Positions 15,960 through 36,800 of a stretch of 44,059 nucleotides of DNA are shown piece after piece. The notes beneath the pieces were generated by a model. That model searched no databases and was not told the origin of the DNA. It saw only the letters and a list, made by a program, of their open reading frames with translations. The position numbers and the translations under genes were made by a program. Each line of letters begins with the position of its first letter. The stretch's first letter is position 1. Source of the DNA: a virus; IMG/VR virus record IMGVR_UViG_3300025584_000284. One strand, 5' to 3'.

Positions 15960-16543
15960 GCTATTTTATCAATTATTCCATACTCTAAACACATTTGTGC
16001 GGTTAGATATGTATCATTTCTTTGAATCTTTTTCCAAAAGGATGCATCTTTATTTGATACTTCTCCTAAAATTGAATTTATATTTTTCTGTAAATCTTTT
16101 AGATGGTCAACACCTTTCATCACATCTGTAGTTTTACCTGCCTCAAATGCTGAACCCTCGTGTACCATAACGGTTGAGTTCGTACTCATTGACCTTACTC
16201 CTGTACCACAAGCTAACAATACCGAAGCGGCACTCATACAAGTTCCAATACAATGTGTGTTTACTTTAACTGGTAAACTTCTTATGAAATCAACCAACCC
16301 CAACATTGCATAAACATCACCACCATATGAAGTAATATTCATATTGATAGATTTTTCTGGATTACATCTTAATAAATAATCTAACTTGATTTGTACTGAA
16401 TATACACTATCAATTTCAAACTCGTGGTTCATCCAAGTAGTATTGGTATCTGAATTAACACCCCACTCTATTTCTTTCATATAAAATGATTGTTCTTTTT
16501 TATAGTCCATAATATCTATTTGTTTTTCCATTACTTGCTCCAT
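15956..16543 (-). CDS. clpP: ClpP-family serine protease (likely start 16531)
   Basis: Motifs ITSYGGDV, GTCMSAASVLL (Ser), STVMVHE (His) and NDTYLTA...YGIIDKI (Asp). Confidence 0.92.
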   Translation of the reverse strand: MEQVMEKQIDIMDYKKEQSFYMKEIEWGVNSDTNTTWMNHEFEIDSVYSVQIKLDYLLRCNPEKSINMNITSYGGDVYAMLGLVDFIRSLPVKVNTHCIGTCMSAASVLLACGTGVRSMSTNSTVMVHEGSAFEAGKTTDVMKGVDHLKDLQKNINSILGEVSNKDASFWKKIQRNDTYLTAQMCLEYGIIDKIA

Positions 16544-16959
16544 ATTTTTTTCAATTCCTTATCAGTTACACCATATTTCATTATGATGGATGTAACTTGT
16601 TCTTTGGTTAATATCTCTAAGTACTGTTCTACTTCTCTTGTACTACATTGAAAGTAATCCACTAAGTGTTCCATTGCCCACTTCTCAACTTTAGATTTCT
16701 TCTTTGATTTCGTGTACTTCAAGAAAGTTCTACCTCTTGGTAATACATCTATATAAAACTGATAAAGATTCTTTGGTTTTATTTCCCAATATTTTTGAAT
16801 CTCATTTACAACTTGTATCCATTCTGATTTCATACTAAGAAATCTATGAACCATATAGTTGCTGAAAGTTTTCTTATCACCCTCTTCAAGTGAATCCCAA
16901 TACAAAGTGTTTTGTACATTTGTTATTTGTTTTATGTGGTCGAATAATGATTTAGACAT
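16531..16959 (-). CDS. Clamp loader small subunit (T4 gp62-like)
   Basis: Motifs LFDHIKQI, FSNYMVHRFLSM, LYQFYIDVLP and FLKYTK; T4-type replisome context. Confidence 0.8.
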   Translation of the reverse strand: MSKSLFDHIKQITNVQNTLYWDSLEEGDKKTFSNYMVHRFLSMKSEWIQVVNEIQKYWEIKPKNLYQFYIDVLPRGRTFLKYTKSKKKSKVEKWAMEHLVDYFQCSTREVEQYLEILTKEQVTSIIMKYGVTDKELKKIWSK

Positions 16960-17010
16960 AATAACCTTTTGATATATATAAATAGTTTAAAATAAATTGA
17001 AACTGTGTGT

Positions 17011-17580
17011 TTATTTCCAAGTATCACCATTCATCCATGTAATTAGTGAATATCGTATTCCATTTGTAATTGGTGTTATTCTATGTGATAGAAATGCAGG
17101 AAATATAATTATACTACCTCGTGTTCTTGTAGCGGTATAATTACTTTCTCCAGTTTCATTAGTAATTCCAAATTCTAAATCTCCACCATCATAACTATTT
17201 CCATCACTCAACTGAACAATAGCAGTTAATTTTCGTGTAGAAATTTCTTTTGCTCCACTATCAGTATGCCATTTGTATCTACCACCTTGTGTATATTTTA
17301 ATAACTTAACTTCTTCCATTTCTTTAATATCATAATTGTATGTGGAAACATTTGCCAATTCAAAAACCATTTTTAATTTATTAGTTAATTTTTCATCATC
17401 AAGTACAAGTTCTCTTGTATTACGAACTTCTTTATTAAGTAAATTTTTATCATAAGTTCCAGCAAGTTCTGAATCTTTTGATTCTTTACTTTCAAAATAT
17501 TCAATTAACTCTATACATTGACTTTCTGATAGAAAATTATCTCTATGAATAACAAACTGAAATTTATCATTAGTAATCAT
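17011..17580 (-). CDS. 2OG-Fe(II) oxygenase (prolyl-4-hydroxylase/PKHD-like)
   Basis: Motifs YKWHTD (HxD), YDGGDLEF and FPAFLSHRITP...RYSLITW. Confidence 0.92.
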   Translation of the reverse strand: MITNDKFQFVIHRDNFLSESQCIELIEYFESKESKDSELAGTYDKNLLNKEVRNTRELVLDDEKLTNKLKMVFELANVSTYNYDIKEMEEVKLLKYTQGGRYKWHTDSGAKEISTRKLTAIVQLSDGNSYDGGDLEFGITNETGESNYTATRTRGSIIIFPAFLSHRITPITNGIRYSLITWMNGDTWK

Positions 17581-19730
17581 TAATATCTTCCAGTCGTTGC
17601 AGTTCTTGCTATATTTATTTTATATTTATCTACATTAAGTGAATCCATATATAAATCGTTAACAACTTTATTATCAGAATAATCCCTATCAAAATTACCA
17701 CTTATTTCAAATGTTTCATCCAATTCTAATTCATTCACATTTTTAATATTTAAATACTTTCTATCTTCTTCATCTACATTAATTTTAAAATCTACTTTCA
17801 AATTAAAATCTGAATTTGGTTTGGTTTCAAAATTAATATTAATAATAAACGAAGTGTCCTTTAAATTAAATACTTTAAAATTATCTGTCATACCAAATTC
17901 TAAATTAACATTCTTTTGTAAACTATATATCAACCATACAAATCCTTTAACTTCATCAATTAATGAATTTATTAAAATTTCTTTAAAAGAAGATTCTCCT
18001 GATGATGGTGTTAAAAAAGAGTTTTTAAAAATACTATCATCTGAAACATTACTGTTACTTCCATCACTTTGAAAATTATAAAATGATGTATCCATTGCCC
18101 ATGATTGAGCCTTTGGCATAGTTTCATCTTGAGCCTCACCAATTGGTTTTGACATATCTTCATCTTTAACCAATCCTCTTTGATTTATTTTAAAAATATT
18201 CAAGAATAAATCTGTTAAATGTGCTCTTAAATGTCTACTAAAAATGTTATTTCTATAATCATTACTTATCCAATTTTTAAGTAAATTTTCATCCTTTGAG
18301 ATATCAAAAACATCTCTTTCTGTATCAAGTGGTGTATCCACTAAGGCATCTGTACCTTTCATTAAATTAATTCTACCAGATTTTTCAACATCACATTTAA
18401 AATTATGTTTAGTATCAAACAAAAACTTTAAACTACTTATAAAATCAACAGTAGTTTCTCTTGGATATCCAGGTATCCATCCCGCATCAAATGCAATTTT
18501 ATCATCTTTTGTAACTGCATCTAAATACATTTTAATAACATCAGGAGTTTGGTTCTTTTCCATTAGTGCTAAAGTTTTTGGAACTCCATTCTCTACTCCA
18601 ATATTCATATAAACCAATCCAGATTTTCTTGATTCATCTAAAAACTTCTCATTCATTTTTTTATGAGTTCTAAAATAACCACCGTATCTTATTTTTGGTA
18701 ATTCTCCCTTGTCAATTAAGTCATTCAATACATCAACAAATTTTTTATAATTACTTATTGAACCATTTATCAATGAATCTGTAAACCAAAAATTTTCAAC
18801 TCCATATTCTTTATTTAATTTTGTTATATCTTCAATTAACTTTTCAGGACTTCTGTATCTATACAATCGAGTCTCACTACAAAAAGTACATTTAAAAGTA
18901 CATCCTCTCGAACCTTGAATTGGTACTGTCAACTTTGGGCCAAAATCTGATGTTTTATCTTCTTTTCTAATTTCAGTATAACCTTTTAAAACTTCTTCAC
19001 TCCAAGTTGGTGTACTTAAAGTATTCAAATTCATTATCTGTAAATTGCCAGTATAAACTGGGGTTCTACCACTACGACCTGGTAGTAATGCCGTTGCAAA
19101 TGATGGTCTTAACTTATCCCACTTCCAAATTCCACTTGTATTTTCATAACTTCCAGTTTCTATTAAATCAGTTGCTAAATCTACAATGGTTTTCTCTCCT
19201 TCATTTGTACCACAACCTATGTCAATAAATTCTCTATACTTTCCTTTTCCTGGAATATCTCCATATCCTTCCTGTGTTTGGAATTTTTTAGAACTTTCAA
19301 CTAACCCACCATTTTCACCATACCAACAAAATGGACCACCATACCATATATGTATATTGGGATTAATTTGTCTTAAATAACGAGCAAGATAATCTGTTGT
19401 CATGATGTTTGATGAATATGTAGTAAAACTAACTACATCATATTCCGATAATTCTTTTATTATATCAAACCAAAATTCTTGAAACAATGGAACAATTTCT
19501 TCCCAAAAAACTTGTTTTGTACTCCAGGGATTATCTTGTGTCCATTTTTTGAAATACTCTTTATGATTATTTTTTAAATACAATGAACTCATCATATTAA
19601 TATCATATTGAGTTGAATTAAAACCTGCCTCCGTTAAGGCTGTATTTAAACTACCTAATGCAAATGAAGGTGTTGCTATAGACCATTGTGGACAAATACA
19701 TAATGCTATTTTTAAATCTTCTTTTTTCAT
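17580..19730 (-). CDS. Cobalamin-binding radical SAM enzyme (class B methyltransferase-like)
   Basis: N-terminal B12 domain (PQWSIATPSFALGSL, VSFTTYSSN, WYGGP), then SRGCTFKCTFC (CxxxCxxC), FWFTDS, IGVENG and GYPRET. The start is set at the TGATG overlap at 19730; the ORF track extends it to 19757. Confidence 0.9.
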   Translation of the reverse strand: MKKEDLKIALCICPQWSIATPSFALGSLNTALTEAGFNSTQYDINMMSSLYLKNNHKEYFKKWTQDNPWSTKQVFWEEIVPLFQEFWFDIIKELSEYDVVSFTTYSSNIMTTDYLARYLRQINPNIHIWYGGPFCWYGENGGLVESSKKFQTQEGYGDIPGKGKYREFIDIGCGTNEGEKTIVDLATDLIETGSYENTSGIWKWDKLRPSFATALLPGRSGRTPVYTGNLQIMNLNTLSTPTWSEEVLKGYTEIRKEDKTSDFGPKLTVPIQGSRGCTFKCTFCSETRLYRYRSPEKLIEDITKLNKEYGVENFWFTDSLINGSISNYKKFVDVLNDLIDKGELPKIRYGGYFRTHKKMNEKFLDESRKSGLVYMNIGVENGVPKTLALMEKNQTPDVIKMYLDAVTKDDKIAFDAGWIPGYPRETTVDFISSLKFLFDTKHNFKCDVEKSGRINLMKGTDALVDTPLDTERDVFDISKDENLLKNWISNDYRNNIFSRHLRAHLTDLFLNIFKINQRGLVKDEDMSKPIGEAQDETMPKAQSWAMDTSFYNFQSDGSNSNVSDDSIFKNSFLTPSSGESSFKEILINSLIDEVKGFVWLIYSLQKNVNLEFGMTDNFKVFNLKDTSFIININFETKPNSDFNLKVDFKINVDEEDRKYLNIKNVNELELDETFEISGNFDRDYSDNKVVNDLYMDSLNVDKYKINIARTATTGRY

Positions 19731-20320
19731 CACACAAAAGTATCTCCTACAGCCCAAGTAACTAAAGAATATCTATGTCCATTTGTAATTGGTTTTACTT
19801 CATGTCCATAAAATGATGGAAATATTAAAGCCCTGCCCTTTCTTGATTCAATGTGTGTACCATCGAAAAACTTAAATTCACCACCTTGATAATCCACTCC
19901 CTCATTACTTAAAAATATAATTATAGTTAACTTAACTACAGTAAAAGGATCAATGGGATGGAAATCTGAATGTGGTGTATACCAGTCCTCTCCATCATAT
20001 CTATGCCCCATAAGTTTATTTTTATATATACCTGAAATATTATATTTGAAAGATGTCGTGTTGGCTATTTCAATCAAACTCCAAATTTTATCTAAATATT
20101 TTTGTTCTTCAATATCAGCAATGTTTAACTTACAAATCTCATCGTCCATCATTGGTTGTTCTTCAACAATAGAATACGAACCTACTTTTGGTTTTGCATT
20201 ATTATCAATATATTTTCGTACTTCATTACATTCATCTTCAGTAAAGAAATTATCTCTTGTTAACCACCATCTAAATGATGGATTTTTTTTAAGAGTATCT
20301 ATATCTATTGGTTTATACAA
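19730..20320 (-). CDS. 2OG-Fe(II) oxygenase
   Basis: Motifs YTPHSD, YQGGEFKF and FPSFYGHEVKP...RYSLVTW. Confidence 0.92.
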   Translation of the reverse strand: MYKPIDIDTLKKNPSFRWWLTRDNFFTEDECNEVRKYIDNNAKPKVGSYSIVEEQPMMDDEICKLNIADIEEQKYLDKIWSLIEIANTTSFKYNISGIYKNKLMGHRYDGEDWYTPHSDFHPIDPFTVVKLTIIIFLSNEGVDYQGGEFKFFDGTHIESRKGRALIFPSFYGHEVKPITNGHRYSLVTWAVGDTFV

Positions 20321-20915
20321 AAGTATTTCCTATTATAAATTCTTGTAATGAATATCTAACACCACTTGTAACTGGTGTAACTCTGTGAAATAACAATGGA
20401 CAAAATATTAATAATGTTCCTTTTTCTTTTGGCATTTCATAAAATTCTAAAGTCTTTGGGTCTTGTATTGCTAATTGTGTAGAACCACCTTCATATTCGC
20501 TTGGAGCTGATAATTGAAGTATTGTAACTAATTTTCTTCTTGAACTCTTACCATTATTAAAATCTGAATGCCATGTGTAAAAATTATCTGATTTATATTC
20601 AATCAATTTTATATTATTTTCTGGTTCTTGTATATGAAGATTCCAAGATAAATGATTACACATCTTAGCCGCAATAAATAATTTCTGTTGTAATGAACTA
20701 TAATCCCCTACAACATAATCTCTCATATCTTTGTGTAAATACCATTCTGTAACATCTCTAAAATCTGTATTGTGATCATCACCAAAGTGGTCATCTAAAC
20801 AACCTTGTTCACTTTTTTCGGTATTCTTTATTCTTTCAACCAACTCATCACACTCATCATTTGTGAGAAAATCTGGTTTACTCATATACCACTGCCAATT
20901 ATTATTCTGATTCAT
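20313..20915 (-). CDS. 2OG-Fe(II) oxygenase
   Basis: Motifs YTWHSD, YEGGSTQL and LFHRVTPVTSGVRYSL. Confidence 0.92.
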   Translation of the reverse strand: MNQNNNWQWYMSKPDFLTNDECDELVERIKNTEKSEQGCLDDHFGDDHNTDFRDVTEWYLHKDMRDYVVGDYSSLQQKLFIAAKMCNHLSWNLHIQEPENNIKLIEYKSDNFYTWHSDFNNGKSSRRKLVTILQLSAPSEYEGGSTQLAIQDPKTLEFYEMPKEKGTLLIFCPLLFHRVTPVTSGVRYSLQEFIIGNTFV

Positions 20916-21417
20916 CTATCCATCCTTTTAAATAATCTGCAAAAATTCTATGTCCTTTTTCATTTGGATGTCCATTTTCACAAAAAACCTCATCTAAACT
21001 ATTTTTATCTTGTGTTATAACCTCATAAAAAGCTTTGTCTGTAAAATTATTAATATTTAAATCTTTTTGTGTTTTACCAAATGAAAAAAATAATATGTGT
21101 TCTACTCCAAGTGATTGTAAAAATGCCTGAAATAAAATTATATCATACATTTCCCAATCATATTTAGAACGACTTTCAGCAGTAAATCCTACAATAAATA
21201 TCGTTTCATTAAGAAGTTTTTGATTCTTATAAATCCACTTCATAGTATTAACTATGATTGTCTCATTACTACAACCACATATTGCCAAATTTATTTCTTT
21301 TAAATTTAATTCATCTGATAATAAATGACTAAATCTCGATTTCTTTTTAAATTTAAGTTCATCTCCCTCAACCCAACTACAACCATTCACATATAGAATT
21401 TTTTTATTTAAAACCAT
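20902..21417 (-). CDS. SGNH/GDSL-hydrolase-like protein
   Basis: Motifs VNGCSWVEG (block I Ser), CGCSN (block II) and GHPNEKGH (block V). Confidence 0.7.
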   Translation of the reverse strand: MVLNKKILYVNGCSWVEGDELKFKKKSRFSHLLSDELNLKEINLAICGCSNETIIVNTMKWIYKNQKLLNETIFIVGFTAESRSKYDWEMYDIILFQAFLQSLGVEHILFFSFGKTQKDLNINNFTDKAFYEVITQDKNSLDEVFCENGHPNEKGHRIFADYLKGWIDESE

Positions 21418-21432
21418 TACTTTATATTAAAG

Positions 21433-23193
21433 TTATTTATTATGCACTAAGTAACCCTCAGCATAATAATTATGTGTTCCATCTACTTCAAAATTATATA
21501 CAGTAACCTGTTCATCACTCAACTCAATAGTTTCAATAGTATGTTCCAATCCATCTACATGAAGTATTTTATCACCAATTGATAAATCACCAGCCTCTAC
21601 CCACTTACCATCAATATAAAATGGATGAACAGAAGTAGTTTTAATATTTCCATTTAAAATCATATAATATCTATCAGTATGTACATATGTTTTTGTTACT
21701 TTAGAATCAACAACTGAACTTGTTCCTACATCAAATGATTTAACAATATCACCTATCTCTACCTCTTCAATAGATTTTACTCCTTCATGCATTTGAATTT
21801 GAGTTCCACCAACGAAACATGGTGGTAAATTATGAACAAGAATGTCTGAACCAAAGTATGTATCAATCTCTTCAACATCTAAGGAATAAAAAGTAGTTTT
21901 TTCATTTACTAACGATATACTATCTATATTAATTTCCTCTTCAGAACTACTTAAAATTTTCATTCCAGTCTCAACATATTCAGGCATTTTAAAACTATAC
22001 TCTGAACCTGATTTTATAAAAAGTGATGCCCCAGTTCCTATTTTATATGAACTATTAATAAGATAATATTTATCTAATTCATCACTACTAAATCCAGTTA
22101 CAACTGAACTTGTAAGTTCAGCATTTTCTATAGATGAAGTTGTCCAACTCCACATATTACTTAATTGAAATGGGCCTGCTGTATCTTCTGGTTGTCCAGG
22201 AATATTATAAGATTGTACAATATCTCCAATTTGAATATCTTCAATATCTTTACTACTACCATCATGCATTCTAATTGGTGTTCCCGTTATAAAAGTATCA
22301 GGGTTATGTGCATAACTTATTTTATACTGATTACTACCACTAACAACTGGTGTTTTTCTACATGAGTATCCTCTTAAATCAGATGAATCTGAAGTTAAGT
22401 AAACACTTGAAGCAGTTGTGTGTAAAACCAACCCTCGAATAACATCTGTTTGTAATGAACCTACAAGTGTATCTGGAACAATATATTCTTCCACTACATA
22501 TCCTAAATCAACATAATCTGAAAGTGAACCCGTAGTAGCATCATTCAAATCAAAAAAGTAATTACCCCTTTTTAAATCTGCATTGGGTATTTTCACCACA
22601 ACATCTGGAACACCTGCTCCATTACTAAAATCTGCTGGTAAATCTGTATATTTTCTTGGTTGATAACTATACAATCCAGAAGAGCTTACATAATTATTAA
22701 AATAATATTTATTTCCAGAATAAGTACAGATTGAATTATTAGTATCAAATGCAATTTTCATCACAAAAACATTTGAATCAGATGAAGAAATTTCTGGGAT
22801 AACAACTGGATATGGGTCTACTAATATTTTCTCATATTCTATATCAGCAGAAGATACACTTGAACTCAAATGTGTTAAAAATCCATCTTGTGGTTTTGCT
22901 CCAACTTCAGTATTATCACAAACAACACAAAGTTTATTATAACCACCACTACCTAAAAAAGTATTTAATGCATCAAAATCTACCCAATTAGTATCTATAT
23001 TTCTCATTCGTAAATGAGTATTTATTTCTGCTAAATATATATCACCATCGTGTGCCATCCAATCATACATACCCAAAATACCCTCATTGTTTTGCTCACC
23101 AATCCAATGTTCACTTTGAGTAAAAAGATTAGCAACTTCTAAACTTTTGTCTCGTAAAGAACCACTATATATTGTTGAATCATAATTTGCCAT
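21433..23193 (-). CDS. Circularly permuted ATP-grasp-like domain fused to two tandem Hint (BIL-like) domains
   Basis: D44/E56-x-N58 (YDWMAHDGDIYLAEINT) precedes VVVKIP...G, VEEYI and DVIRG. Hint1 spans T300-N455 (TFITGT...ILVHN), followed by the linker LPP, Hint2 at C459-N585 (CFVGGT...TTSVHPF...YLVHN) and terminal K586. Confidence 0.8.
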   Translation of the reverse strand: MANYDSTIYSGSLRDKSLEVANLFTQSEHWIGEQNNEGILGMYDWMAHDGDIYLAEINTHLRMRNIDTNWVDFDALNTFLGSGGYNKLCVVCDNTEVGAKPQDGFLTHLSSSVSSADIEYEKILVDPYPVVIPEISSSDSNVFVMKIAFDTNNSICTYSGNKYYFNNYVSSSGLYSYQPRKYTDLPADFSNGAGVPDVVVKIPNADLKRGNYFFDLNDATTGSLSDYVDLGYVVEEYIVPDTLVGSLQTDVIRGLVLHTTASSVYLTSDSSDLRGYSCRKTPVVSGSNQYKISYAHNPDTFITGTPIRMHDGSSKDIEDIQIGDIVQSYNIPGQPEDTAGPFQLSNMWSWTTSSIENAELTSSVVTGFSSDELDKYYLINSSYKIGTGASLFIKSGSEYSFKMPEYVETGMKILSSSEEEINIDSISLVNEKTTFYSLDVEEIDTYFGSDILVHNLPPCFVGGTQIQMHEGVKSIEEVEIGDIVKSFDVGTSSVVDSKVTKTYVHTDRYYMILNGNIKTTSVHPFYIDGKWVEAGDLSIGDKILHVDGLEHTIETIELSDEQVTVYNFEVDGTHNYYAEGYLVHNK

Positions 23194-23228
23194 AATTTAT
23201 ATCCTTAATTTGGAAGTTTGTATACACT

Positions 23229-23236
23229 TATAAATA
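23229..23236 (-). promoter_or_regulatory. Candidate late-type promoter element (TATTTATA on the coding strand)
   Basis: The exact 8-mer lies 36 nt upstream of the ATP-grasp/Hint gene; the same 8-mer lies at 16977-16984, upstream of the gp62-like gene. Confidence 0.45.
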
Positions 23237-23680
23237 TCATATTCCTTTTATTTCTGTAAAAATATTTTCTTTCATAACTGATAATGCTGGTGTATTCCAA
23301 TCTTCTAATTTAATTGATGCGTAATTATACCCTTGTTTAACGATTTCATTACATCTCAACCATACTAAATCACTTCCCAATCCTTTGTTTCTATATTCTG
23401 GCATTATATAACGATTACATAAATAAGGATATTTTCTATTCCAATCTATAAAACACCAACCACACTCAGTTAAATAAAATGTCCAATTGTCTTTTAATCT
23501 TTGTTTTAATTCCGTTAAATCCCATTGTTTCCAAGGCCGTCCAAATGAATCTTTGAAGTTATCTAACTCTTCTGATACTACTTGTATCTGTTCTGAATGA
23601 ATATCATTGTAGTTTGTAAACTCTTGATACTTTTGAACTTCTTTTGGTTCGTAATTACTTAAATCTATCTTGTAATACAA
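23237..23680 (-). CDS. GNAT-family acetyltransferase
   Basis: Acetyl-CoA motif A (YIMPEYRNKGLGSDL) and motif B (WNTPAL); TTG start. Confidence 0.8.
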   Translation of the reverse strand: MYYKIDLSNYEPKEVQKYQEFTNYNDIHSEQIQVVSEELDNFKDSFGRPWKQWDLTELKQRLKDNWTFYLTECGWCFIDWNRKYPYLCNRYIMPEYRNKGLGSDLVWLRCNEIVKQGYNYASIKLEDWNTPALSVMKENIFTEIKGI

Positions 23681-23682
23681 AA

Positions 23683-23955
23683 TTATGTATCACTATCTAA
23701 ATCTAAACCAGTTCCTTGTAACATTGTCTTTGGAACTTTTCCACAATTTCCACAACTATAAACATCAATCGGTACTAATGCTTCTTTTCCTGTTGGTGAT
23801 ACAATTGCTGATAATCTTTTTATTATCGTGGATTGTATAAACAACACATTATTACATTCAGGATCATCACACCGTACGGTATCTGCTTTCGATAAATCTA
23901 CCTGTGGTTGTGCTTGTCGTGGCTGTTGGAACTGTCTTTGTGGTTTTGTACTCAT
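23683..23955 (-). CDS. Small Zn-binding hypothetical protein
   Basis: Motifs CDDPEC...CGNCG and a Q/P-rich N-terminus; GGAG RBS. Confidence 0.7.
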   Translation of the reverse strand: MSTKPQRQFQQPRQAQPQVDLSKADTVRCDDPECNNVLFIQSTIIKRLSAIVSPTGKEALVPIDVYSCGNCGKVPKTMLQGTGLDLDSDT

Positions 23956-23965
23956 TTTAACTCCT

Positions 23966-25228
23966 TTATATTTGTTTCTTTATATCATTAATAACTTTAT
24001 TGATACTTATCTTTTTGTAAATCTTATTTATCTCTTCCTGAAACTGATAAATAAACTTATTTCTATAATATAAATATGATTCACCAGATTTTACCAATAT
24101 TTTATCCAAATCTTGTTCTGTAAAAAAGTTTGGTTTCCAATCATCATAGAATTTTCTTTCATAAAAATATTTTTCAATGTTATTTCTCATTGTCCAATAA
24201 TCAAGTTGATAGGCCGTTAACTCTGAATTATTAATATATGCTTCAGAACTATCATGTAATGTTTGTGTCATACTACCATCAAAAACTCTTGGTTTTTCTA
24301 ATCTATGTATATGAGTAAAATTTGTTTTATCATTATATTTTATAACACAATTATTCTTCACAGCTTTAACTATTATAGCCTGCTCTTCTTGTGGTTGAAT
24401 TCCAATTCCACCTAAATCATTATAAATTTTAGCTCTAAATGTTTTAGGCCAAAATTCAGTACCATCGTCTACCCTGTACAATAAATTTTTATCTAAACTA
24501 ACCCCTTCATCTTTTTTAATTCCCCACACTATGTCAAAATTATTATAATACCATTTTCCCAACAATCCGTTCATAGTTTCTATTTCATTTATATAAGGTT
24601 TTAACTTTGAAATATCAATTACACTCTCTAAACTTGTAAAATTATAAGTATCACATTTCGTTACTAATATATCTAACCTATCTTCACCCAAACCTATTGG
24701 ATTTAATTGATGTGGATTTTCATATTTAGATGGATTTTTGAAAGTTTTTAATACTTCTTCAACATAATGATTTTCAAATACATTATCTGCACCAAAGAAT
24801 GCAACTATTCCATCATTAAAATCATCATACTTACTCCATCTATGTAATGCAACATCTATTCCAAATTTTGCAGCTAAGGCTGCACCTTGTATTTCATTGG
24901 GAAATTTTACATTTATTAAATGTATATTATCATATTTGTATTTATCTAATTTTTCTTTAACTACTATTTCAGTATTATCTAATTCTTCTTCTATTGAACA
25001 ATTATTTACAATTAATACTTCAAATTCATAAGGTGAAGTTGTTTGATTAATAAGTGATTCTACACAATCACCTATAAAACTCTCTTCTCTATACGCAATT
25101 ATAATTAGTTGATATTTTACAAAATCATATCTTTCCTGAGTTCCGAAGGGCGCAGGTAGAGCGTTATTAACTAAACTTTTATATTCTTGTTTATACTCTG
25201 GTGGAATTTCTTTTAAATAGTCGTACAT
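23966..25228 (-). CDS. Glycosyltransferase family 2-like
   Basis: Motifs IIIAYREESFIGDCVESL, LIVNNCS, FFGADN (DxD-like) and EEQA. Confidence 0.75.
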   Translation of the reverse strand: MYDYLKEIPPEYKQEYKSLVNNALPAPFGTQERYDFVKYQLIIIAYREESFIGDCVESLINQTTSPYEFEVLIVNNCSIEEELDNTEIVVKEKLDKYKYDNIHLINVKFPNEIQGAALAAKFGIDVALHRWSKYDDFNDGIVAFFGADNVFENHYVEEVLKTFKNPSKYENPHQLNPIGLGEDRLDILVTKCDTYNFTSLESVIDISKLKPYINEIETMNGLLGKWYYNNFDIVWGIKKDEGVSLDKNLLYRVDDGTEFWPKTFRAKIYNDLGGIGIQPQEEQAIIVKAVKNNCVIKYNDKTNFTHIHRLEKPRVFDGSMTQTLHDSSEAYINNSELTAYQLDYWTMRNNIEKYFYERKFYDDWKPNFFTEQDLDKILVKSGESYLYYRNKFIYQFQEEINKIYKKISINKVINDIKKQI

Positions 25229-25353
25229 AATATATCTTTATAATTACTAACTCTATTAAAATTATCCACTTCGCCTATACAACCATCACAAACATCTCCA
25301 TTATCTCTTATTTCAGAATATCTAAATGGTGATACACAAAATCCTTTTCTCAT
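25213..25353 (-). pseudogene. 46-aa in-frame remnant of a SPASM/twitch radical-SAM-type gene
   Basis: Manual translation: MRKGFCVSPFRYSEIRDNGDV-CDGCIGEVDNFNRVSNYKDILCTTI*. The FCxxPF...I...GDV start is joined directly to a CxxC tail. ATGA overlap with the clamp-loader stop. Confidence 0.5.
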
Positions 25354-26294
25354 TTTATTTTTCCAATTACCTCAACGAACATAGCCATAATATTAATCTC
25401 TTTATCCACTACTATAGCATCACTTTGTTGATATTGACTTAATGTTAAAATACATTCTGCAACATGACCTCTACCCCAATCATCTACTGTGTCAAATAGT
25501 AATCTAAATAAATCACTAAAGTCTGTTATTTTGGAATCTGCCAATACTTGTCTAATGTTTTTAAACGAATTCTTTTTATCTTGTGTTTTTAAAATATCTA
25601 ATACTTGGTTCTTGTAGTCATTCTGTATTGCCATTCCCTCATCAATAACAAGTTTACCATTTACAACTTGTCGTTGTATAGAATTTATAACTCTTCTTAT
25701 ATCTGGATAACCACCATTAACTATCGTTACAATGTCATCTACTGTTGCATCCACCTTTTCATTCTGTAAAATATTTGAAACATGAAGTGCAACTTGTTTC
25801 CTATCTGGTGGTATAATTTGAAAAGATTGACATCTCGATTGAATTGGGTCTATAACTCTCTCTACGAAATTGCAGGTTAGAATGAATCTACAATGTTTAC
25901 TAAATGTTTCCATCAAGTTACGAAGTGCTGCCTGTGCATTTGGTGTGATGTAATCACACTCATCTAAAATGATAATCTTCATCTCTGCAAACCCAAGTGT
26001 TGAGGCAAAGTTCTTTACTTTATCTCTAACTATCTCTACACTATTCTCATCTGATGCATTAATATATAGATAATCACAATCTATATTATTAACAAGTAGT
26101 TTTGCGAGAGTGGTCTTACCTGTACCAGCTCTTCCGTACAGTAAAAGATGTGGTAAGTCGCCACTCTCCAGATAAACCTTAACCTTACTCTTTAGATGTT
26201 CATTTCCAATGTAAGTGTCAAGGTTTGAAGGCCGATATCTTTCCGTCCAAAGTGAATTTTTAATTTCATCCATTATAATTTTTTCCAAATCCAA
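25350..26294 (-). CDS. Clamp loader AAA+ subunit (T4 gp44 / RFC-like)
   Basis: Motifs LWTERYRP, GRAGTGKTT (Walker A), ILDECD (Walker B) and SRC. Confidence 0.95.
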   Translation of the reverse strand: MDLEKIIMDEIKNSLWTERYRPSNLDTYIGNEHLKSKVKVYLESGDLPHLLLYGRAGTGKTTLAKLLVNNIDCDYLYINASDENSVEIVRDKVKNFASTLGFAEMKIIILDECDYITPNAQAALRNLMETFSKHCRFILTCNFVERVIDPIQSRCQSFQIIPPDRKQVALHVSNILQNEKVDATVDDIVTIVNGGYPDIRRVINSIQRQVVNGKLVIDEGMAIQNDYKNQVLDILKTQDKKNSFKNIRQVLADSKITDFSDLFRLLFDTVDDWGRGHVAECILTLSQYQQSDAIVVDKEINIMAMFVEVIGKIK

Positions 26295-30932: not shown

Positions 30933-33740
30933 TTAGAAATTAACACTTAACCCTAAGTTAAAGTATCTTGGTGTACCAAGAAATACTTCAGCGTTATGTG
31001 CTGAGTGAGTTTTACTCCCATAGCTATTGTATTGACTATGATCTACTGCATCTTGTACATATGTTTCGTCTAAAGCGTTAAACACATGAGCAAATAAAGA
31101 TATGTCATATCCACTAACTGGTAGTAAATATGAAGCATGTAAGTCCACCTTTGAATAAGATGGTGCTTCCCATACTTGTTCTCTGTCTGCATCTTCATCT
31201 GAACCATCGTATTCACGAGAATCAGGACTCCAATCACTATAGTTCTTATCATAAGAATTCCATAGTGCTGAAATTACTAATCCCTTTACAGGAAAAATGG
31301 TTGCACCAAGTGCATATGAAGTCTGTGGCATATCACCAACATTCAACCCGTCAAGGGCGTATTGATAATCTGTAGTGGTTAAACCAGTTACATTACCATC
31401 ATCATCATATTCATTTGATTGATACTTTCCATGAGCATCACCATCAAACTTCCAAGTACCAAGACTTACTGCTGCATCTATACGAACCAATTTATGTAGT
31501 TGTGTAGAAGCTTCAATCTCAAGTCCTTGATGTTTTTGTTGAATACCTGTTAAGAAAATGACATCAGTATCTCCTGAATCACCTTGTCCTGTGGTTACTG
31601 CTTTAGTAAGGTTTCTGTCTTTCCAATCTGTATTGTAAACATTTGCCTTAACAGCAAATCTTTCAGATTCGAAATTGACACCAGCTTCTGAACTAATGAA
31701 ACTTTCATTATTTGGATCAGAAGCAACCGTACCATCAAAGTAAATCACATTATCCATGATAGGTGGTTTTTCAACATATCCAATGTTAGCAAAAAGACTA
31801 ACATTATCATCTATGTCGTACATTGCTCCACCTTTGAACTGAGCAGCATAAATAGCATCAGCTTTTATTACTTCATCAGCAACTGAAAAGTGGTCTTGGT
31901 AAGAATACTTAATACTTGATAATCCACCCATACCATATAGATTTAGATTATCTTTACTATAATTACCTTGTACAAATCCACCCAACCAATCAACGGTAGT
32001 TTCATTGTGATAAGCGATTATATCACCTAACCCAACTCTTTTACCATCTGGTGCGTTATCATCAGCAAAATCCAAATAATAATCTCCACCTAATAAATCA
32101 CGAACTTCTCGTGCGTGTTCTATACCTGCGGTTCTCCAATCAATACCTACTTGTAACTTAAACTCATCACTAATATCGTAATTAAGTTTAGAAATTACAC
32201 CATAAGTATTTTGACGATTGATACTATTACGAAGAATACCAACTGATTGATTATTATCAACACCATGTGTTCGTGTAAGAGCTGACTTATCTACATATAC
32301 TACTGAATCATCTCCAGAATTATATGCTATAAGACTATTCCAATCACGAGTCCAGGGACCACGACCATAATAAAATTTATAGTCATCATCACCAAGATTA
32401 CCATCAGCATCAAATGTAGGAATCTTACCATAAGTTCCTGTTCCACCACCAGAACCACCTGACCAATAAAAGACTGAACTTAAACTTGTCTTATCATCTA
32501 TTGTCCAAAAATGATTTAGATTTACTAATGGTTTGTGAAAGTAGTTTTCTCTTTCGTTTAGATAATCACTTGCGTGTCTATCTTGTAGTCCACTATCAAA
32601 AAGTCCACCTACACCATACATATACCAGTATTGTTTACCTTTATATGATGGGTCAACTGGTGACCAGTTTTGATTAAACTTATGTCCTACATCTGCGAAC
32701 TTACCATCTTCACCAAGTGCTTCAGTATCATATCCATCTACACTTGCAGCAAAATCAGCGTCATAAGCACCGATATTCTGTTTGTATAGATTTTGTCCAT
32801 GTCGCTGTGGAGCACCGATTGCATATAATTCCAATCGATGGTCAGCATTTACTTGATAACTTGAACCAAAATAATATGCCCAAGCGTCTGTCCATGTCTT
32901 GTCAATGACACCATCACCTGTTTTACGAACTACAGTACCACTTAGGGCGAATTTATCACCAATAAGTCCTGAATTGTAATTCAATGTGGTTTTCAGAAAA
33001 CCCCCTGCACCACCTTCCTGTTTAAACTTACCACCTTTTGAAGCGGAAGCAGGATTTGTGATTATGTTCATCGTACCACCAATTGAGGGGGCAGCCAAGT
33101 TAACGGCACTTAATCCACGCTGCATCTGGATAGATTGAGCTGCATCTGCAACTCCATCCCAGTTAGACCAATAGACCCAACCGTTTTCCATATCGTTTTG
33201 TGGAACTCCGTTTATCATTACTGCTACATTCCTCTGATTAAACCCGCGAACATTGATACGGGCATCACCCGCACCCCCACCTTGTTGCGTAGCATATACA
33301 CTTGGTGTAGTATTTAAAGACATTGGTAAGTCTTGTGAACCAAGACGAAATTCAATTTCTTCTTTACTAACTGTAGTATAAGCAACAGGTGTTTTATCAT
33401 CAGCCCTTGAAGCTAAAACTTCAAGTGCAGACATCTCAAGTGCAGATATTAAAAGTGAGAAGTCTACGGTACTAGCCGTTCCCTCTACCACTTCAACCTC
33501 TACTGTATGGGATGCATATCCAATTGAAGAAGCTTTAATTGTATAAGTTCCTGCCCCTAAATCAATAGAGTAAGCTCCATCTGCATCAGCAGATGTACCT
33601 AAATCAGTTCCTTGTACTACAATATCAGCCCCAATCAATGGGTTCTTTTCTGTATCTGTAACTGTTCCGACTACCTGCCCATATAAGAACATTGGCATCA
33701 TCATTGTTAAAAATACAGATATTAGATTATTTTTTTTCAT
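30933..33740 (-). CDS. TonB-dependent outer-membrane receptor (signal peptide, carboxypeptidase-regulatory-like domain, plug, beta-barrel)
   Basis: Signal peptide ending LYG-Q; motifs GTVTD...PLIGADIVVQGT and plug RINVRGF...VMINGVPQND; barrel strands ending PRYFNLGLSVNF (terminal Phe). Confidence 0.93.
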   Translation of the reverse strand: MKKNNLISVFLTMMMPMFLYGQVVGTVTDTEKNPLIGADIVVQGTDLGTSADADGAYSIDLGAGTYTIKASSIGYASHTVEVEVVEGTASTVDFSLLISALEMSALEVLASRADDKTPVAYTTVSKEEIEFRLGSQDLPMSLNTTPSVYATQQGGGAGDARINVRGFNQRNVAVMINGVPQNDMENGWVYWSNWDGVADAAQSIQMQRGLSAVNLAAPSIGGTMNIITNPASASKGGKFKQEGGAGGFLKTTLNYNSGLIGDKFALSGTVVRKTGDGVIDKTWTDAWAYYFGSSYQVNADHRLELYAIGAPQRHGQNLYKQNIGAYDADFAASVDGYDTEALGEDGKFADVGHKFNQNWSPVDPSYKGKQYWYMYGVGGLFDSGLQDRHASDYLNERENYFHKPLVNLNHFWTIDDKTSLSSVFYWSGGSGGGTGTYGKIPTFDADGNLGDDDYKFYYGRGPWTRDWNSLIAYNSGDDSVVYVDKSALTRTHGVDNNQSVGILRNSINRQNTYGVISKLNYDISDEFKLQVGIDWRTAGIEHAREVRDLLGGDYYLDFADDNAPDGKRVGLGDIIAYHNETTVDWLGGFVQGNYSKDNLNLYGMGGLSSIKYSYQDHFSVADEVIKADAIYAAQFKGGAMYDIDDNVSLFANIGYVEKPPIMDNVIYFDGTVASDPNNESFISSEAGVNFESERFAVKANVYNTDWKDRNLTKAVTTGQGDSGDTDVIFLTGIQQKHQGLEIEASTQLHKLVRIDAAVSLGTWKFDGDAHGKYQSNEYDDDGNVTGLTTTDYQYALDGLNVGDMPQTSYALGATIFPVKGLVISALWNSYDKNYSDWSPDSREYDGSDEDADREQVWEAPSYSKVDLHASYLLPVSGYDISLFAHVFNALDETYVQDAVDHSQYNSYGSKTHSAHNAEVFLGTPRYFNLGLSVNF

Positions 33741-33818: not shown

Positions 33819-36800
33819 TTAGTTTGCATAATCTTGATCATCGTTATCTCCACTTAATGGTTGAATCTCACATGAATCATTATTGCAAAATTTATCTATT
33901 TCAGCCTCTTCATTTTTAATTACACCAAATGAAAGAGGTTTTAATTTTTTTAATTGTTTATTATAAGTTTTCTCATCTATTGCTTCATATGGCATTTGTT
34001 TGTAAGCTCCATAATCATGTCTTGGTAATAATGAAATTCCTTTTAATCTATATTGAAAATAATTCAATACATATGGTAGTTCTTCAGCTTCTGTTTCAGG
34101 ATTGAATGTTGCCGTACAACTAACTTGGTTATCTGCCCAATGTCGTTGTAAGAACGCGGCTAAACTGAATTGTTCCCAAATCGAAAGTTCAGCCGCAGTT
34201 CTTATACCTTCTCCAACATCTACTGGAACATCTACAACCATAGTTGTATTCTCCGAACCAAATGCTGGCTCTAACTTATAACCTGCTTTTTTCAATGGTT
34301 CTATTAATTCAGATTGATTTGATAATCTTACTCTCCGAATATAGAAACGACTTTCGGGATAATGTAATCCTGGAGTTGCTCCTGCTAATAATGAAACCGT
34401 TCCACTTGGTTTAACACTTGTGGTTTTAATTGATTTTGGTATGGCGAACCAATCAGAATATAATTTATCCCATTCTTGTATAACATCATATCCATCTTCT
34501 AACCAAGTTTTTAATTTATCTAATCCATGATTAGTAATGAATTGTGCAACTCCACTAACACTACATCCAATTCTTCTATTTCTCAACATAACTCTATTTG
34601 TATCACTCCAATGAGTTCTACCAAGTGTTACCGTTTTAGCATACAGATAAGCATATTTAAGTGTTCTTTGATAGTCCTCTAATGAGTCGTGATTGTTTGG
34701 AAATGTTTCTACAAGACAACAAAGTTCATAACTTTCCAAACTTTGTTCCAGGCAATTATGGATAAACAAACCAGATGAATCTAAATATTTGTTGTCTTTT
34801 GTAGATGTTATCACACCAAAATTATGTGTATCTTCAACAGTCATATCATAAACATCTTCATACCCATAAAACTCAACTGATACAACTTTATGATTCCAAA
34901 TACCTTGATTTTCCATACTTCTTTTAACATTAGAACAAGAATGACTGCAAGTTTTTCTTTTGGAAGCTTGATATTCTGTAAGTGTCTTATGTTCATTACA
35001 TACTGGACAGTTCCAATCAACCCACGCAGTTCTTGATTTTTTTATGTCGGATAAATGTTTTTTTACTTCATTGGTCATACCATTTTTAATCGATTCAATC
35101 ATAAAATCTCGTTGATTTTCCCAATTTTTAGTTGATTTTTTACCAATAGATTTTAATGCAGAATCTTTGTGATTTTTACCGTACATACCATTTCGCTCAC
35201 CGTAATGACCACCATTAATACGAGTAGTTTCTTTCATCTTTTCTACATTTACAGGGTTATGCATTGGATTTTTATCTAATCTATGTAATCTACTATGTTC
35301 TGATTGAGTAATAACATCTAAATTATCCCATGAATCATTTGTCTTATCAAAATCTATATGATGAATAGCATACTCTTTGGCGGTAGGCATATAACCAAGT
35401 TCTGATTCTGTGATTAATCTATACTGTCTTAATCCACTTGCTTTTTTCCCGGTACCTCGTATGTTTCTATAACCTTTATTACTAAAACTATTAAATGGAA
35501 ATACTGATTCATCTTTTTGTAAATCTCTAAGTTCTTTATATTCACCACTTCGTAACATAATTTTATGGTCAGGTGTTGCTAATAAATTAGAACCATCATC
35601 CAAAGTAAGTTTCCACACTTCTGTATTTTCTTTTGTTTTCCAAGTTTTAATTGATTGTTTGATGACTACTTTTCCATTTTCATCAACTGAATAAACTGGG
35701 TATTGAGTATCTACTAAATCTTTAATTGGAACTGTATTTCTACCATCAGCTACTGCTACTAATGTTTCACCAACAATACAAGGATTTCCACCCATAACTC
35801 TATGGTCTTTATTATCTCCACCATTTTGCATACGAGAAAATTTCCTCATATTTTCTAACCAAGCTAAACCAGGTTCTCCATTATCTACGATTCGTTTTGA
35901 AACTTCTGTATAATCCATACCAAGTTCTGCAAATATACTATTGTTTGAAGTCCACCCATATTGTTCTCTGTCTGGATTAACTTTATAATTTTTTAAATCT
36001 AAATATTCATCATCATGGGGATCACCGAACACAATCTCTGCTGTTCGTCTTACATTCCCTGCTACGACACATTTACCAATTAGGTTCATTATATCCACAA
36101 TTGTAGTTACGGTAATTAGTTCTCCACTATTCTTTTCTAATACTTTTCTTATATCTTCGTGAACTTCTTCTAATGGGTCTGGACCACTTGAAACACCGCC
36201 AAATCCTTTGATTGGTTCTCCTAATGCTCTAATCTTTGTATAATCAAACTCTACTGGGTGTGAACCATGAAAATAACTTTCTAATAATAACCTTAACGAA
36301 TCTACCCAACCTTCTCTTGTGTCTGGAATCTGAAATATTGTTGAATCCCTATCTTTATCTATACCTTTAACAAGTATTTCACCAGCACCCTTACAGTCAA
36401 ATCCAACACCAACACCTAACATACTTGCATCCATTAGAAAACAGAATGGTTTTGAGTAATCTTCTTTAAGTGTTTTAGTAGATACGAATGCACAATTATT
36501 TAGAGCTGCATATAATTTCTTTTCTTCTGTGATTGATGTTCCCATTGCCCATAAACCACGACCAGGTGGTAAAAATTTCATATTGAATATTCTATCATAC
36601 ATATCTTGTGCAGATTTCTGTGCTTGCCACGGATTCCAACCTAATTGATGAGAATTAATCCAATTCCATTGCATTGAATATGTTCCCTCTACAACTCTTT
36701 GGACGGTTTCCCACCATCTCTCATTTTTTCCATTCTCTTTGATACGGGAATAGGTTCTCATATAAACCAGTTCACCTAACCCATTAAAACCAAACGGTGG

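Follow-up and report, generated by a model that had tools for sequence, protein, structure and literature searches.

The question raised by positions 17011-23680 of the IMG/VR virus record IMGVR_UViG_3300025584_000284 (44,059 nucleotides (nt), a stretch referred to in its whole length as the window) is whether the seven co-directional genes found there, all on the minus strand, work together and, if they do, on which molecule. These genes encode a GNAT acetyltransferase, a protein composed of a putative ligase domain and two Hint domains, a predicted SGNH-fold hydrolase, three 2-oxoglutarate (2OG)-Fe(II) oxygenases and a radical S-adenosylmethionine (SAM) enzyme. The analysis presented here supports the view that they are one conserved unit, and it is probable that they form one functional tailoring module centred on the ligase-Hint protein. 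As regards the substrate, the reading that we favour, tentatively and with a chance that we put slightly below even, is that it is the short tail at the C-terminal end of the ligase-Hint protein, which would receive hydroxyl, methyl and acetyl groups, would be set free or activated by the Hint domains and would then be ligated. This would be a pathway similar to those of ribosomally synthesized and post-translationally modified peptides (RiPPs), in which the precursor would be the tail of its own ligase.

A conserved unit of seven genes

In an earlier note on this DNA, six genes were reported to run from 23193 to 17011 with a 15-nt gap or overlapping ends. The open reading frames (ORFs) and their junctions are as described there: from the ligase gene onward, the first two genes are separated by 15 nt, and the following ones overlap by 14, 8, 1 (TGATG) and 1 nt (TAATG), respectively. 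The seventh gene, encoding the GNAT, is separated from the ligase gene by a gap of 43 nt (23194-23236). The TTG start codons of the middle oxygenase gene and of the GNAT gene are backed by homologues (those of the oxygenase begin with MYKPID). The 725-amino acid (aa) ORF with a TTG start that had been proposed for the radical SAM enzyme had to be shortened, as its true start is the ATG at 19730 and its product has 716 aa.

The IMG/VR database was scanned with an alignment of the radical SAM enzyme, which confirmed 152 relatives; 80 loci were returned and annotated with profiles built from our own alignments. When IMG/VR was scanned by pattern with only the ligase-Hint protein, no relative was confirmed; the close homologues of this protein are few (68-88% identity), and they share the same architecture and the same neighbours, and full-length relatives of the radical SAM enzyme were found down to 30% identity. 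Co-occurrence was counted only in loci with enough flanking DNA, in which the identity of the radical SAM enzyme was 39-100%. The ligase-Hint gene was located upstream of the radical SAM gene in all 40 informative loci and was itself preceded by the GNAT gene in 25 of 25. The gp62 gene was found downstream of the radical SAM gene in 52 of 52 loci, and at least three oxygenase genes were present in 61 of 63. Conservation of the gene neighbourhood, which had been named beforehand as a check of the locus, was thus found in every informative relative, down to 39% identity of the radical SAM enzyme, and the GNAT gene, previously noticed only as lying upstream, turned out to be a core member of the module. 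Moreover, all of the enzymes are under purifying selection (ratio of nonsynonymous to synonymous substitution rates (dN/dS) of 0.14-0.48). These data support the conclusion that the genes constitute one conserved unit, retained over the long term.

The carriers of the module are a clade of uncultured marine T4-like phages. Among 50,697 records of isolate phages, blastn found nothing that matched the block, and tblastn searches of isolate phages with the ligase-Hint protein and the radical SAM enzyme returned only unrelated Hint and radical SAM pieces, with no ligase domain and no radical SAM enzyme of this kind.

The ligase-Hint protein and its C-terminal tail

The ligase-Hint-Hint gene (21433-23193, minus strand) encodes a protein of 586 aa, and structure prediction supports the assignment of its residues 1-299 (22297-23193, minus strand) to the circularly permuted ATP-grasp amide-ligase fold, in the branch of GspS, YgiC and eukaryotic glutathione synthetase. 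The AlphaFold (AF2) model of this domain (predicted local distance difference test score, pLDDT, of 86.6) matched YgiC, YjfC, GspS and eukaryotic glutathione synthetase in Foldseek with an E-value of 1e-6, and the permuted-type matches also included trypanothione synthetases. In VIA comparisons, the Z scores ranged from 11.5 to 13.4 (13.4 for 1m0w, with a root-mean-square deviation of 4.8 over 262 residues, and 12.8 for YgiC), whereas non-permuted (classical) ATP-grasps reached only Z ~5 and were matched over residues 86-299 only. No match was found for residues 1-300 in Pfam, NCBIfam or PHROGs, and the profile search of the PDB matched only the Hint parts of the protein. Among 30 homologues, D44 and N58 are invariant and E56 is near-invariant. 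The ligase domain has the highest dN/dS in the locus (0.49-0.74), and it is only 22-26% identical between clades whose radical SAM enzymes share 42-69% identity. Compared with the radical SAM enzyme, the domain shows a mosaic pattern: in loci L027 and L030 the radical SAM enzyme is 65-69% and the ligase domain 23-25% identical to those of the window, and in L042 the respective values are 63% and 71%.

The two Hint domains follow. Hint1 (residues 300-455; 21829-22296, minus strand; matched by Pfam Hom_end_hint, Vint and AXH) has Thr at position 1, lacks the block-B TxxH motif and ends with VHN. It can be aligned position by position to intein block A, and its best matches in the PDB profile search were the Hint of an ADP-ribosyltransferase toxin and a bacterial intein-like (BIL) domain. 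Position 1 is Ser or Thr throughout the clade and N, H, I or Q in the wider family, and the His-Asn end is kept in all members of the clade. Hint1 is followed by Leu456-Pro457-Pro458 (21820-21828, minus strand), and then by Hint2 (named HintA in the comparison of tails; residues 459-585; 21439-21819, minus strand), which has Cys at position 1, a TxxH motif (T520, H523) and the terminal His-Asn (H584-N585), and which matches PT-HINT (PF07591; E-value 9.7e-24, above the Pfam cut-off) and Intein_splicing (E-value 1.8e-13). The protein ends with Lys586 (21433-21438 with the stop codon, minus strand), which is both the +1 residue of Hint2 and the last residue of the tail. Leu456 and Lys586, the +1 residues of the two domains, are invariant in close relatives. 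As these are not Cys, Ser or Thr, neither domain is predicted to be an intein that splices by the canonical route, and both appear to be cleavage-type domains similar to PT-HINT and BIL. Hint1 is predicted to cleave only at its own C-terminal end, i.e., between Asn455 and Leu456.

The piece that follows Hint1 was compared in 68 loci. It was LPPK and a stop codon in 13 loci, and LPP-[Hint, Cys1 to HN]-K-stop, the type found in the window, in nine. In 38 loci it was IPP(G/R)K followed by a different Hint (with Cys1, but with a VLVSD end) and an acidic tail. The remaining tails were IPQK-stop (four loci), LPKK-stop and IPGKE-stop (one locus each), and IPP-[HintA]-K-[HintB], in which both additional Hints occur together (two loci). 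The feature that stays constant across the clades is therefore a [Leu/Ile]-Pro-x-(x)-Lys tail located directly after the His-Asn of Hint1, and this His-Asn end and the [LI]P..K tail are kept also in loci whose ligase domains share only 22-26% identity. The additional Hints are placed exactly before or exactly after the tail Lys, and a sister clade ends with LPPK without Hint2. What had been described as a Pro-Pro extein is thus not a free-standing extein; it is the front part of a conserved C-terminal [LI]-P-P-K tail into which Hint2 is inserted. Excision of either additional Hint would restore the same tail, or would leave a tail with an activated carboxyl. In loci L052 and L079, three Hints in a row are joined by one or two residues (..VHN-K-F-C.., with the end ..THN-SP).

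Hint2 has the lowest dN/dS in the locus (0.00-0.08, compared with 0.12 for PolB), which argues that it is functional and not decaying. It is also 47-49% identical to the same insertion in a distant clade, in step with the 43% of Hint1. The possibility that Hint2 is a recently spreading selfish intein was considered and rejected, given this very strong purifying selection and the divergence in step with Hint1.

An exhaustive, profile-free search with the ligase domain yielded 35 representative proteins, and a Hint follows the ligase domain in all of those that are long enough. What follows the Hint varies in distant members between a Cys-rich peptide (27-70 residues), a large repeat domain and a Laminin_G domain, and this is the same cargo-release layout as in pretoxin-Hint proteins. 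The neighbourhoods of these homologues are varied but again rich in tailoring enzymes: a GNAT gene lies directly upstream in L014; two 2OG oxygenase genes, a GNAT gene and a gene of a C39-like peptidase surround the homologue in L016/17; and a tryptophan halogenase and a twitch/SPASM-like radical SAM enzyme are encoded near it in the 250-kb phage contig L012/13. In this last contig (L012:10001-11959, P0170), a 27-residue Cys/Trp-rich peptide is located between two Hints, and a 37-aa ORF and the genes of the halogenase and of the radical SAM enzyme follow. Genes of a carbamoyltransferase and a halogenase stand beside one distant homologue, a GNAT-like gene and genes of a FabA-like dehydratase, a sulfotransferase and an Orn/Arg decarboxylase are present near the homologue in L020/21, and an AMP-binding enzyme is encoded near the one in L019. 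Furthermore, in the 258-kb phage NCTB (L018, LT598654.1; 2729-3190 and 4554-8468), proteins of the tail region end with a Hint, His-Asn and a tail of 3-7 residues, and one of these Hints follows a Gly6-Cys junction, which suggests Hint-based autoprocessing of structural proteins in this phage.

Probable tailoring enzymes and genomic setting of the module

All protein families predicted in the earlier note are supported by Pfam matches or by predicted folds, with the reservation that the B12-binding domain of the radical SAM enzyme stays below the cut-off in the window protein. The GNAT (147 aa; 23237-23680, minus strand; dN/dS 0.19-0.28) matches Acetyltransf_1 with 26.7 bits (cut-off 20.7). 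The three oxygenases, i.e., paralogue c (200 aa; 20313-20915, minus strand), paralogue b (196 aa; 19730-20320, minus strand; the middle one) and paralogue a (189 aa; 17011-17580, minus strand), match 2OG-FeII_Oxy_3 (PF13640, similar to prolyl 4-hydroxylases) with E-values of 5.5e-12, 6.9e-14 and 5.4e-15, respectively (46.9-56.6 bits, cut-off 27). Their HxD...H...R motif is intact (H105, D107, H166 and R176 are invariant in 12 orthologues). The suggestion that they resemble prolyl hydroxylases holds, as the nearest families are PKHD hydroxylases, bacterial and viral prolyl 4-hydroxylases and the mimivirus lysyl hydroxylase. The oxygenases fall into three orthologue clades, each of which is present in nearly every sampled locus, and the triplication is therefore old, with every copy kept. 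In most other clades, the gene of paralogue a is located before, and not after, the radical SAM gene.

The radical SAM enzyme (716 aa; 17580-19730, minus strand; dN/dS ~0.27) is probably of the class-B (B12-binding) type and matches Pfam Radical_SAM with 41 bits (cut-off 29.5); the cysteines of its CxxxCxxC motif (C277, C281, C284) are invariant in 16 homologues. The cobalamin-binding domain PF02310 was matched with 20.2 bits, below the cut-off of 32.1, and several full-length relatives carry this domain. The NCBIfam neighbours of the enzyme, all far below their cut-offs, belong to class-B families only and include RiPP C-methyltransferases. No family was assigned to its C-terminal region of ~230 aa, as an atlas search with the last 237 residues returned nothing above 0.87.

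The 171-aa protein (20902-21417, minus strand) is supported as a hydrolase of the SGNH/GDSL fold by its AF2 model (pLDDT 80.3), which matched GDSL esterases and TesA of E. coli in Foldseek (E-value 6e-6, TMq 0.57-0.67). It carries the motifs GCSW, CSNE and NGHPN..H, in which S14 (block I) is near-invariant and N51 (block III) and H150 (block V) are invariant; the acidic residue of block V is not conserved. The identification was made by the fold search only: a PDB sequence search gave no match, and the only Pfam match, DUF6071 (E-value 0.005), is below the threshold. While the SGNH fold proposed previously was borne out, core membership of this gene was not, as it is absent or replaced in other clades, and it is regarded as an accessory member. 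Where it is absent, a 140-aa gene with a sulfotransferase-like P-loop (HFRVGSTNF) may stand before the radical SAM gene (L008:9582-10004, L011, L096-L099); the clades with this gene have IPQK or LPKK tails. Some clades have neither gene at that place.

No small ORF (~50 aa) adjoining the ligase gene was found in the window. A C-terminal tag shared across the neighbouring enzymes was not found either: the GNAT ends with ..EIKGI, the SGNH-like protein with ..IDESE and the radical SAM enzyme with ..TTGRY, and a G(D/N)T(F/W)(V/K) C-terminus is common only to the three paralogous oxygenases. Among population variants from one metagenome, the first oxygenase is split into two ORFs (105 and 68 aa) and the GNAT is cut to 90 aa (L003:12279-12754, L004:9612-9884), and individual members can therefore decay in some genomes.

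The window represents the replication region of a T4-like phage, with every gene on the minus strand, a GC content of ~30% and a strongly negative GC skew across its whole length. Ahead of the block, the gene order is as follows: gp32, a RecA/UvsX-like gene, a 5'-3' exonuclease, a methylase-like gene, a DnaB-type helicase, NrdJ, a TonB-dependent receptor, a family-B polymerase, a 243-aa gene, a second methylase-like gene and a gp44-like AAA+ clamp loader (25350-26294, minus strand; Pfam AAA and DNA_pol3_delta2). The block is followed by a gp62-like small subunit of the clamp loader (16531-16959, minus strand; phrog_225, E-value 4.6e-19), ClpP, a DUF1599 gene and nucleases, and a SLOG-family gene of the replication region is also close to it. 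The nearest isolate by polymerase, Microcystis phage Mel-JY01, shows only 44% identity. In its genome, the polymerase, a 250-aa gene, the clamp-loader ATPase, an 81-aa gene and the clamp-loader A subunit follow one another, with no island between them. The 90-aa zinc-ribbon protein encoded next to the GNAT gene of the window (23683-23955, minus strand) is homologous to the product of this 81-aa gene (44% identity, E-value 2e-18), and so the zinc-ribbon gene, considered as a possible member of the module, was rejected and assigned to the clamp-loader backbone. The adjacency of the backbone genes in Mel-JY01, together with this homology, sets the limits of the block: it is an accessory island between gp44 (with the small zinc-ribbon gene) and gp62, spanning 17011-23680 from the GNAT gene to the last oxygenase gene.

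The neighbouring GT2 glycosyltransferase gene (23966-25228), one of the nearby glycosyltransferases that according to the earlier note could further decorate a modified virion protein, is a separate insertion restricted to the sub-clade of the window. The 121 nt that separate gp44 from the GT2 gene are covered by a 46-codon ORF with five cysteines (25213-25353), which extends into the gene on either side; at this spot, relatives carry quite different genes (a 385-aa gene, or 2OG_5 with a 267-aa gene), and the ORF may be a remnant of rearrangement. Between NrdJ and the polymerase, there is a complete gene of a TonB-dependent receptor (CarboxypepD_reg and Plug; 30933-33740), and receptors of this type are known mainly from Bacteroidota. 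In L001-L004, a 330-aa glutamine-synthetase-like gene, missing from the window, is placed between the receptor and the polymerase. The B12-dependent ribonucleotide reductase NrdJ (33819-36854) is split by an intein with an HNH endonuclease, a true intein, in contrast to the cleavage-only Hints of the module.

The earlier note described the block as bounded by two copies of TATTTATA. Both coding-strand copies exist (plus-strand TATAAATA at 23229-23236 and 16977-16984), but the upstream one lies between the GNAT gene and the ligase gene, so the pair does not bound the conserved module. As an enriched element of the window, TATAAATA/TATTTATA was rejected, being no more frequent than by chance; the octamer is in fact under-represented (5 copies in the window compared with 10.7 expected). 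On the coding strand, ATATTTATA is located in the 43-nt gap between the GNAT and ligase genes, which may serve as a promoter or regulatory site, and CTATTTATA in the 51-nt gap upstream of gp62 (16960-17010, minus strand). In distant relatives, these two places again carry related motifs, ATATTTAT and AACTATTTAT. The gap motif is kept upstream of the orthologous ligase gene in L008, L010 and L011, and AACTATTTAT is conserved upstream of gp62 in L008 and L010. Judging by this recurrence, the motifs at the two gaps may be regulatory. In the window as a whole, TATTTAT was not borne out as a general intergenic motif, and matches to sigma-70-type promoters were rarer than in shuffled sequences (46 compared with 73). 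The terminator-like hairpins within the block were few and located inside genes; the transcription unit was not definable by promoters and terminators. Several intergenic regions of the window (e.g., upstream of 15902, 28233, 30798 and 36854), and in L008 and L011 also the region before the ligase gene, contain a TATA(T)AGG-like motif, which is a candidate for a promoter or leader element of the phage.

Possible substrates and relation to known systems

The tail is suggested as the substrate by its composition of Pro and Lys, given that the closest relatives of the oxygenases are prolyl and lysyl hydroxylases, and by the structural relatives of the ligase domain, which activate the C-terminal carboxylate of a short peptide. 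According to this reading, the three oxygenases, the B12 radical SAM enzyme (by C-methylation or a related radical step) and the GNAT (by N-acetylation) would modify residues of the tail. Cyclisation of the Asn at the C-terminus of a Hint requires no N-terminal nucleophile, and Hint1 would therefore be expected to cut between Asn455 and Leu456 and to stay on the ligase; by this cyclisation of Asn455, the tail would be freed at its N-terminal side. A Hint with Cys1 forms a thioester with the preceding carbonyl, and hence Hint2 would be expected to activate Pro458, with Cys459 turning its carbonyl into a thioester, and Asn585 could release Lys586; in clades without Hint2, the tail would keep the free carboxylate of its Lys. 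The ATP-grasp domain would then ligate the small peptide to an amine or carboxylate partner, and the SGNH esterase could contribute optional trimming or thioester hydrolysis. A narrower version, in which the product would be a heavily modified peptide of three to five residues that might also be cyclised or attached to an amine, seems doubtful to us; it would make the system an enzyme-borne, single-turnover, Hint-released RiPP pathway, a biosynthetic logic without a described precedent, with the C-terminus of the peptide delivered either as the Hint2 thioester or as an acyl phosphate of the ATP-grasp domain.

Several observations weigh against the tail as the substrate. The assignment of the ligase is made at the level of the predicted fold. 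Its fast evolution fits a role in host interaction at least as well as a fixed biosynthetic role. As all 80 loci represent one genomic position in one phage lineage, the co-occurrence of the genes speaks for long-term retention and not for independent assembly, and it could be explained by inherited synteny. These phages have additional 2OG oxygenase genes at other places, so the presence of such neighbours does not single out the module. Phages with one-Pro tails (IPQK, LPKK) keep the oxygenases of all three lineages, and there is no simple match of one enzyme per residue. The Ser or Thr at position 1 of Hint1 across the clade leaves other processing schemes possible. Finally, the cost would be high, i.e., a protein of 460-586 aa for each tetrapeptide. 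The earlier proposal of a phage-encoded biosynthetic or post-translational modification system is partly supported, in so far as the genes are one conserved unit under purifying selection; the link between the enzymes and the tail, and any product, are putative.

Only two alternatives to the tail as the substrate are serious, and neither of them explains the conserved tail or the placement of the Hints. The oxygenases, the radical SAM enzyme and the GNAT might act on other proteins, such as Pro/Lys-rich or collagen-like virion proteins or host translation and transcription factors, and the ligase-Hint protein would then be a separate, self-processing partner in the operon, or would ligate onto those same targets. 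This is unlikely in our view, though the oxygenases do resemble protein prolyl and lysyl hydroxylases, viral ones included, the Hint1 region matches a PHROG annotated as virion structural protein, the tail-region proteins of phage NCTB end in similar Hints with short tails, and glycosyltransferases are abundant in the window. Such targets leave the strict conservation of the [LI]PPK tail, and the Hint insertions that respect it, without explanation; moreover, the module is located in the replication region and not among structural genes, the adjoining glycosyltransferase is not conserved with it, and no collagen-like target was identified in the contigs (as distinct from whole genomes). The other serious alternative, which we consider quite unlikely, is non-ribosomal tailoring of a small molecule, or of a sugar or amino acid, in which the ATP-grasp enzyme would join a free carboxylate to an amine (e.g., a polyamine) in the manner of GspS or Cp1B, the oxygenases, radical SAM enzyme, GNAT and esterase would act on the metabolite, and the Hint would only mature or regulate the ligase. 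The structural neighbours of the ligase domain are indeed all small-molecule ligases (GspS, YgiC/YjfC, glutathione synthetase and Cp1B), and the last of them, a fungal E-64 ligase, works with a 2OG oxygenase (PMC12568646). Also in line with a small molecule are the distant homologue beside the Orn/Arg decarboxylase, sulfotransferase and FabA-like dehydratase, the other one beside an AMP-binding enzyme, and the cyanophage clusters of amino-acid- and sugar-modifying genes which are proposed to make a secondary metabolite (PMC7824862). However, small-molecule tailoring would leave the conserved tail, the Cys-rich cargo peptides of relatives and the extreme constraint on Hint2 unaccounted for.

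Two further alternatives carry far less weight. Hypermodification of DNA bases or nucleotides is very improbable, even though the block is placed in a replication module near DUF1599 ("nucleotide modification associated domain 1"), two DNA-methylase-like genes and the SLOG-family gene, and one oxygenase has a weak, below-threshold match to Oxygenase-NA (E-value 4.6e-4). Genes of a hydroxymethylase, a base kinase or a pyrophosphorylase-type transferase are missing from the block, the oxygenases are similar to prolyl 4-hydroxylases and not to TET/JBP or AlkB, the DUF1599 gene is a backbone gene that flanks gp62 in all relatives, and no known pathway of base modification involves a Hint-tail protein. 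It is most improbable that the ligase-Hint protein is an effector similar to polymorphic toxins, or a counter-defence effector, whose Hint frees a C-terminal cargo against the host or competing phages, with unrelated auxiliary metabolic genes as neighbours. The PT-HINT match of Hint2, the toxin-borne Hint as the best match of Hint1, the cargo that varies across the family after the Hint (large repeat domains and Laminin_G included) and the fast evolution of the ligase domain would agree with such an effector, but the cargo of this clade consists of 3-5 conserved residues without any toxin domain, no immunity gene is evident, and the set of enzymes is kept together as a unit.

If the tail is the substrate, as we favour, the module would represent a new route to a peptide natural product, with the precursor contained within the enzyme, release by a Hint instead of a protease and a product of a few residues, and some of the orphan 2OG oxygenase genes of marine T4-like phages would gain a function. 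The nested, cleavage-only Hints with Leu or Lys at the +1 position could be useful in protein chemistry, e.g., where C-terminal thioesters are to be made and no splice junction is wanted. With 152 relatives in IMG/VR, the module is common, and it is strictly conserved, which suggests that its function, whatever it may be, is important to a group of phages abundant in the ocean. Should the substrate prove to be another protein or a metabolite, the ligase-Hint fusion is still an uncharacterised family whose ligase domain has no Pfam model.

The Hints of the module are similar to PT-HINT (PF07591) and BIL domains in that they have the Hint fold, no homing endonuclease and no Cys, Ser or Thr at the +1 position, and in that they stand just before a variable C-terminal piece. 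They differ in that the Hint here follows an ATP-grasp ligase and not a secretion or Rhs module, and in that the cargo is a conserved tail of 4-5 residues with a second Hint nested within it. The ligase domain shares its predicted fold, over ~260 residues, with GspS, YgiC/YjfC and eukaryotic glutathione synthetase, enzymes that couple a short peptide to an amine through the activated C-terminal carboxylate of the peptide; an early acidic/Asn cluster (D44, E56, N58) is conserved among homologues of the domain. In contrast to these enzymes, it is fused to Hints, its length is ~300 aa compared with 380-480, and there is no detectable sequence similarity.

Microviridin-type graspetide clusters combine an ATP-grasp enzyme with a GNAT, and polytheonamide/proteusin clusters combine class-B radical SAM C-methyltransferases with a 2OG hydroxylase. 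The same classes of enzymes are thus clustered with a genetically encoded peptide in these RiPP systems and in the module. Unlike in them, there is no separate gene of a leader/core precursor here, the candidate core being the C-terminal tail of the ligase itself; release is predicted to occur by Hint autoproteolysis and not by a protease; and the ATP-grasp enzyme is of the GspS type and not RimK-like. In the mycofactocin, pyrroloquinoline quinone (PQQ) and pearlin/3-thiaglutamate pathways, small molecules are carved from the C-terminal residues of a ribosomal peptide, and the likeness is that few terminal residues of a translated product reach the final compound; those pathways differ in using small scaffold peptides and dedicated peptidases. 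To our knowledge, none of them includes a Hint domain or an enzyme-borne precursor.

Among phages, the closest comparison is with the cyanophage clusters of sugar- and amino-acid-modifying genes, which Iyer et al. 2021 (PMC7824862) proposed to serve secondary metabolite synthesis or polysaccharide decoration, and which, in large marine phages, group genes of halogenases, 2OG oxygenases, methylases and carbamoyltransferases into blocks. The passages searched of that paper do not mention the ligase-Hint protein, and compared with the clusters as described in them, the module is fixed in composition and in its position between the clamp-loader genes. Our literature search (ATP-grasp with Hint and phage, BIL with RiPP, Nmad1/DUF1599, and PiuC) found no description of an ATP-grasp-Hint fusion or of such a module. 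The parts of the module are of known kinds and their combination is not, and it is the micro-tail and the nested Hint that distinguish this clade.

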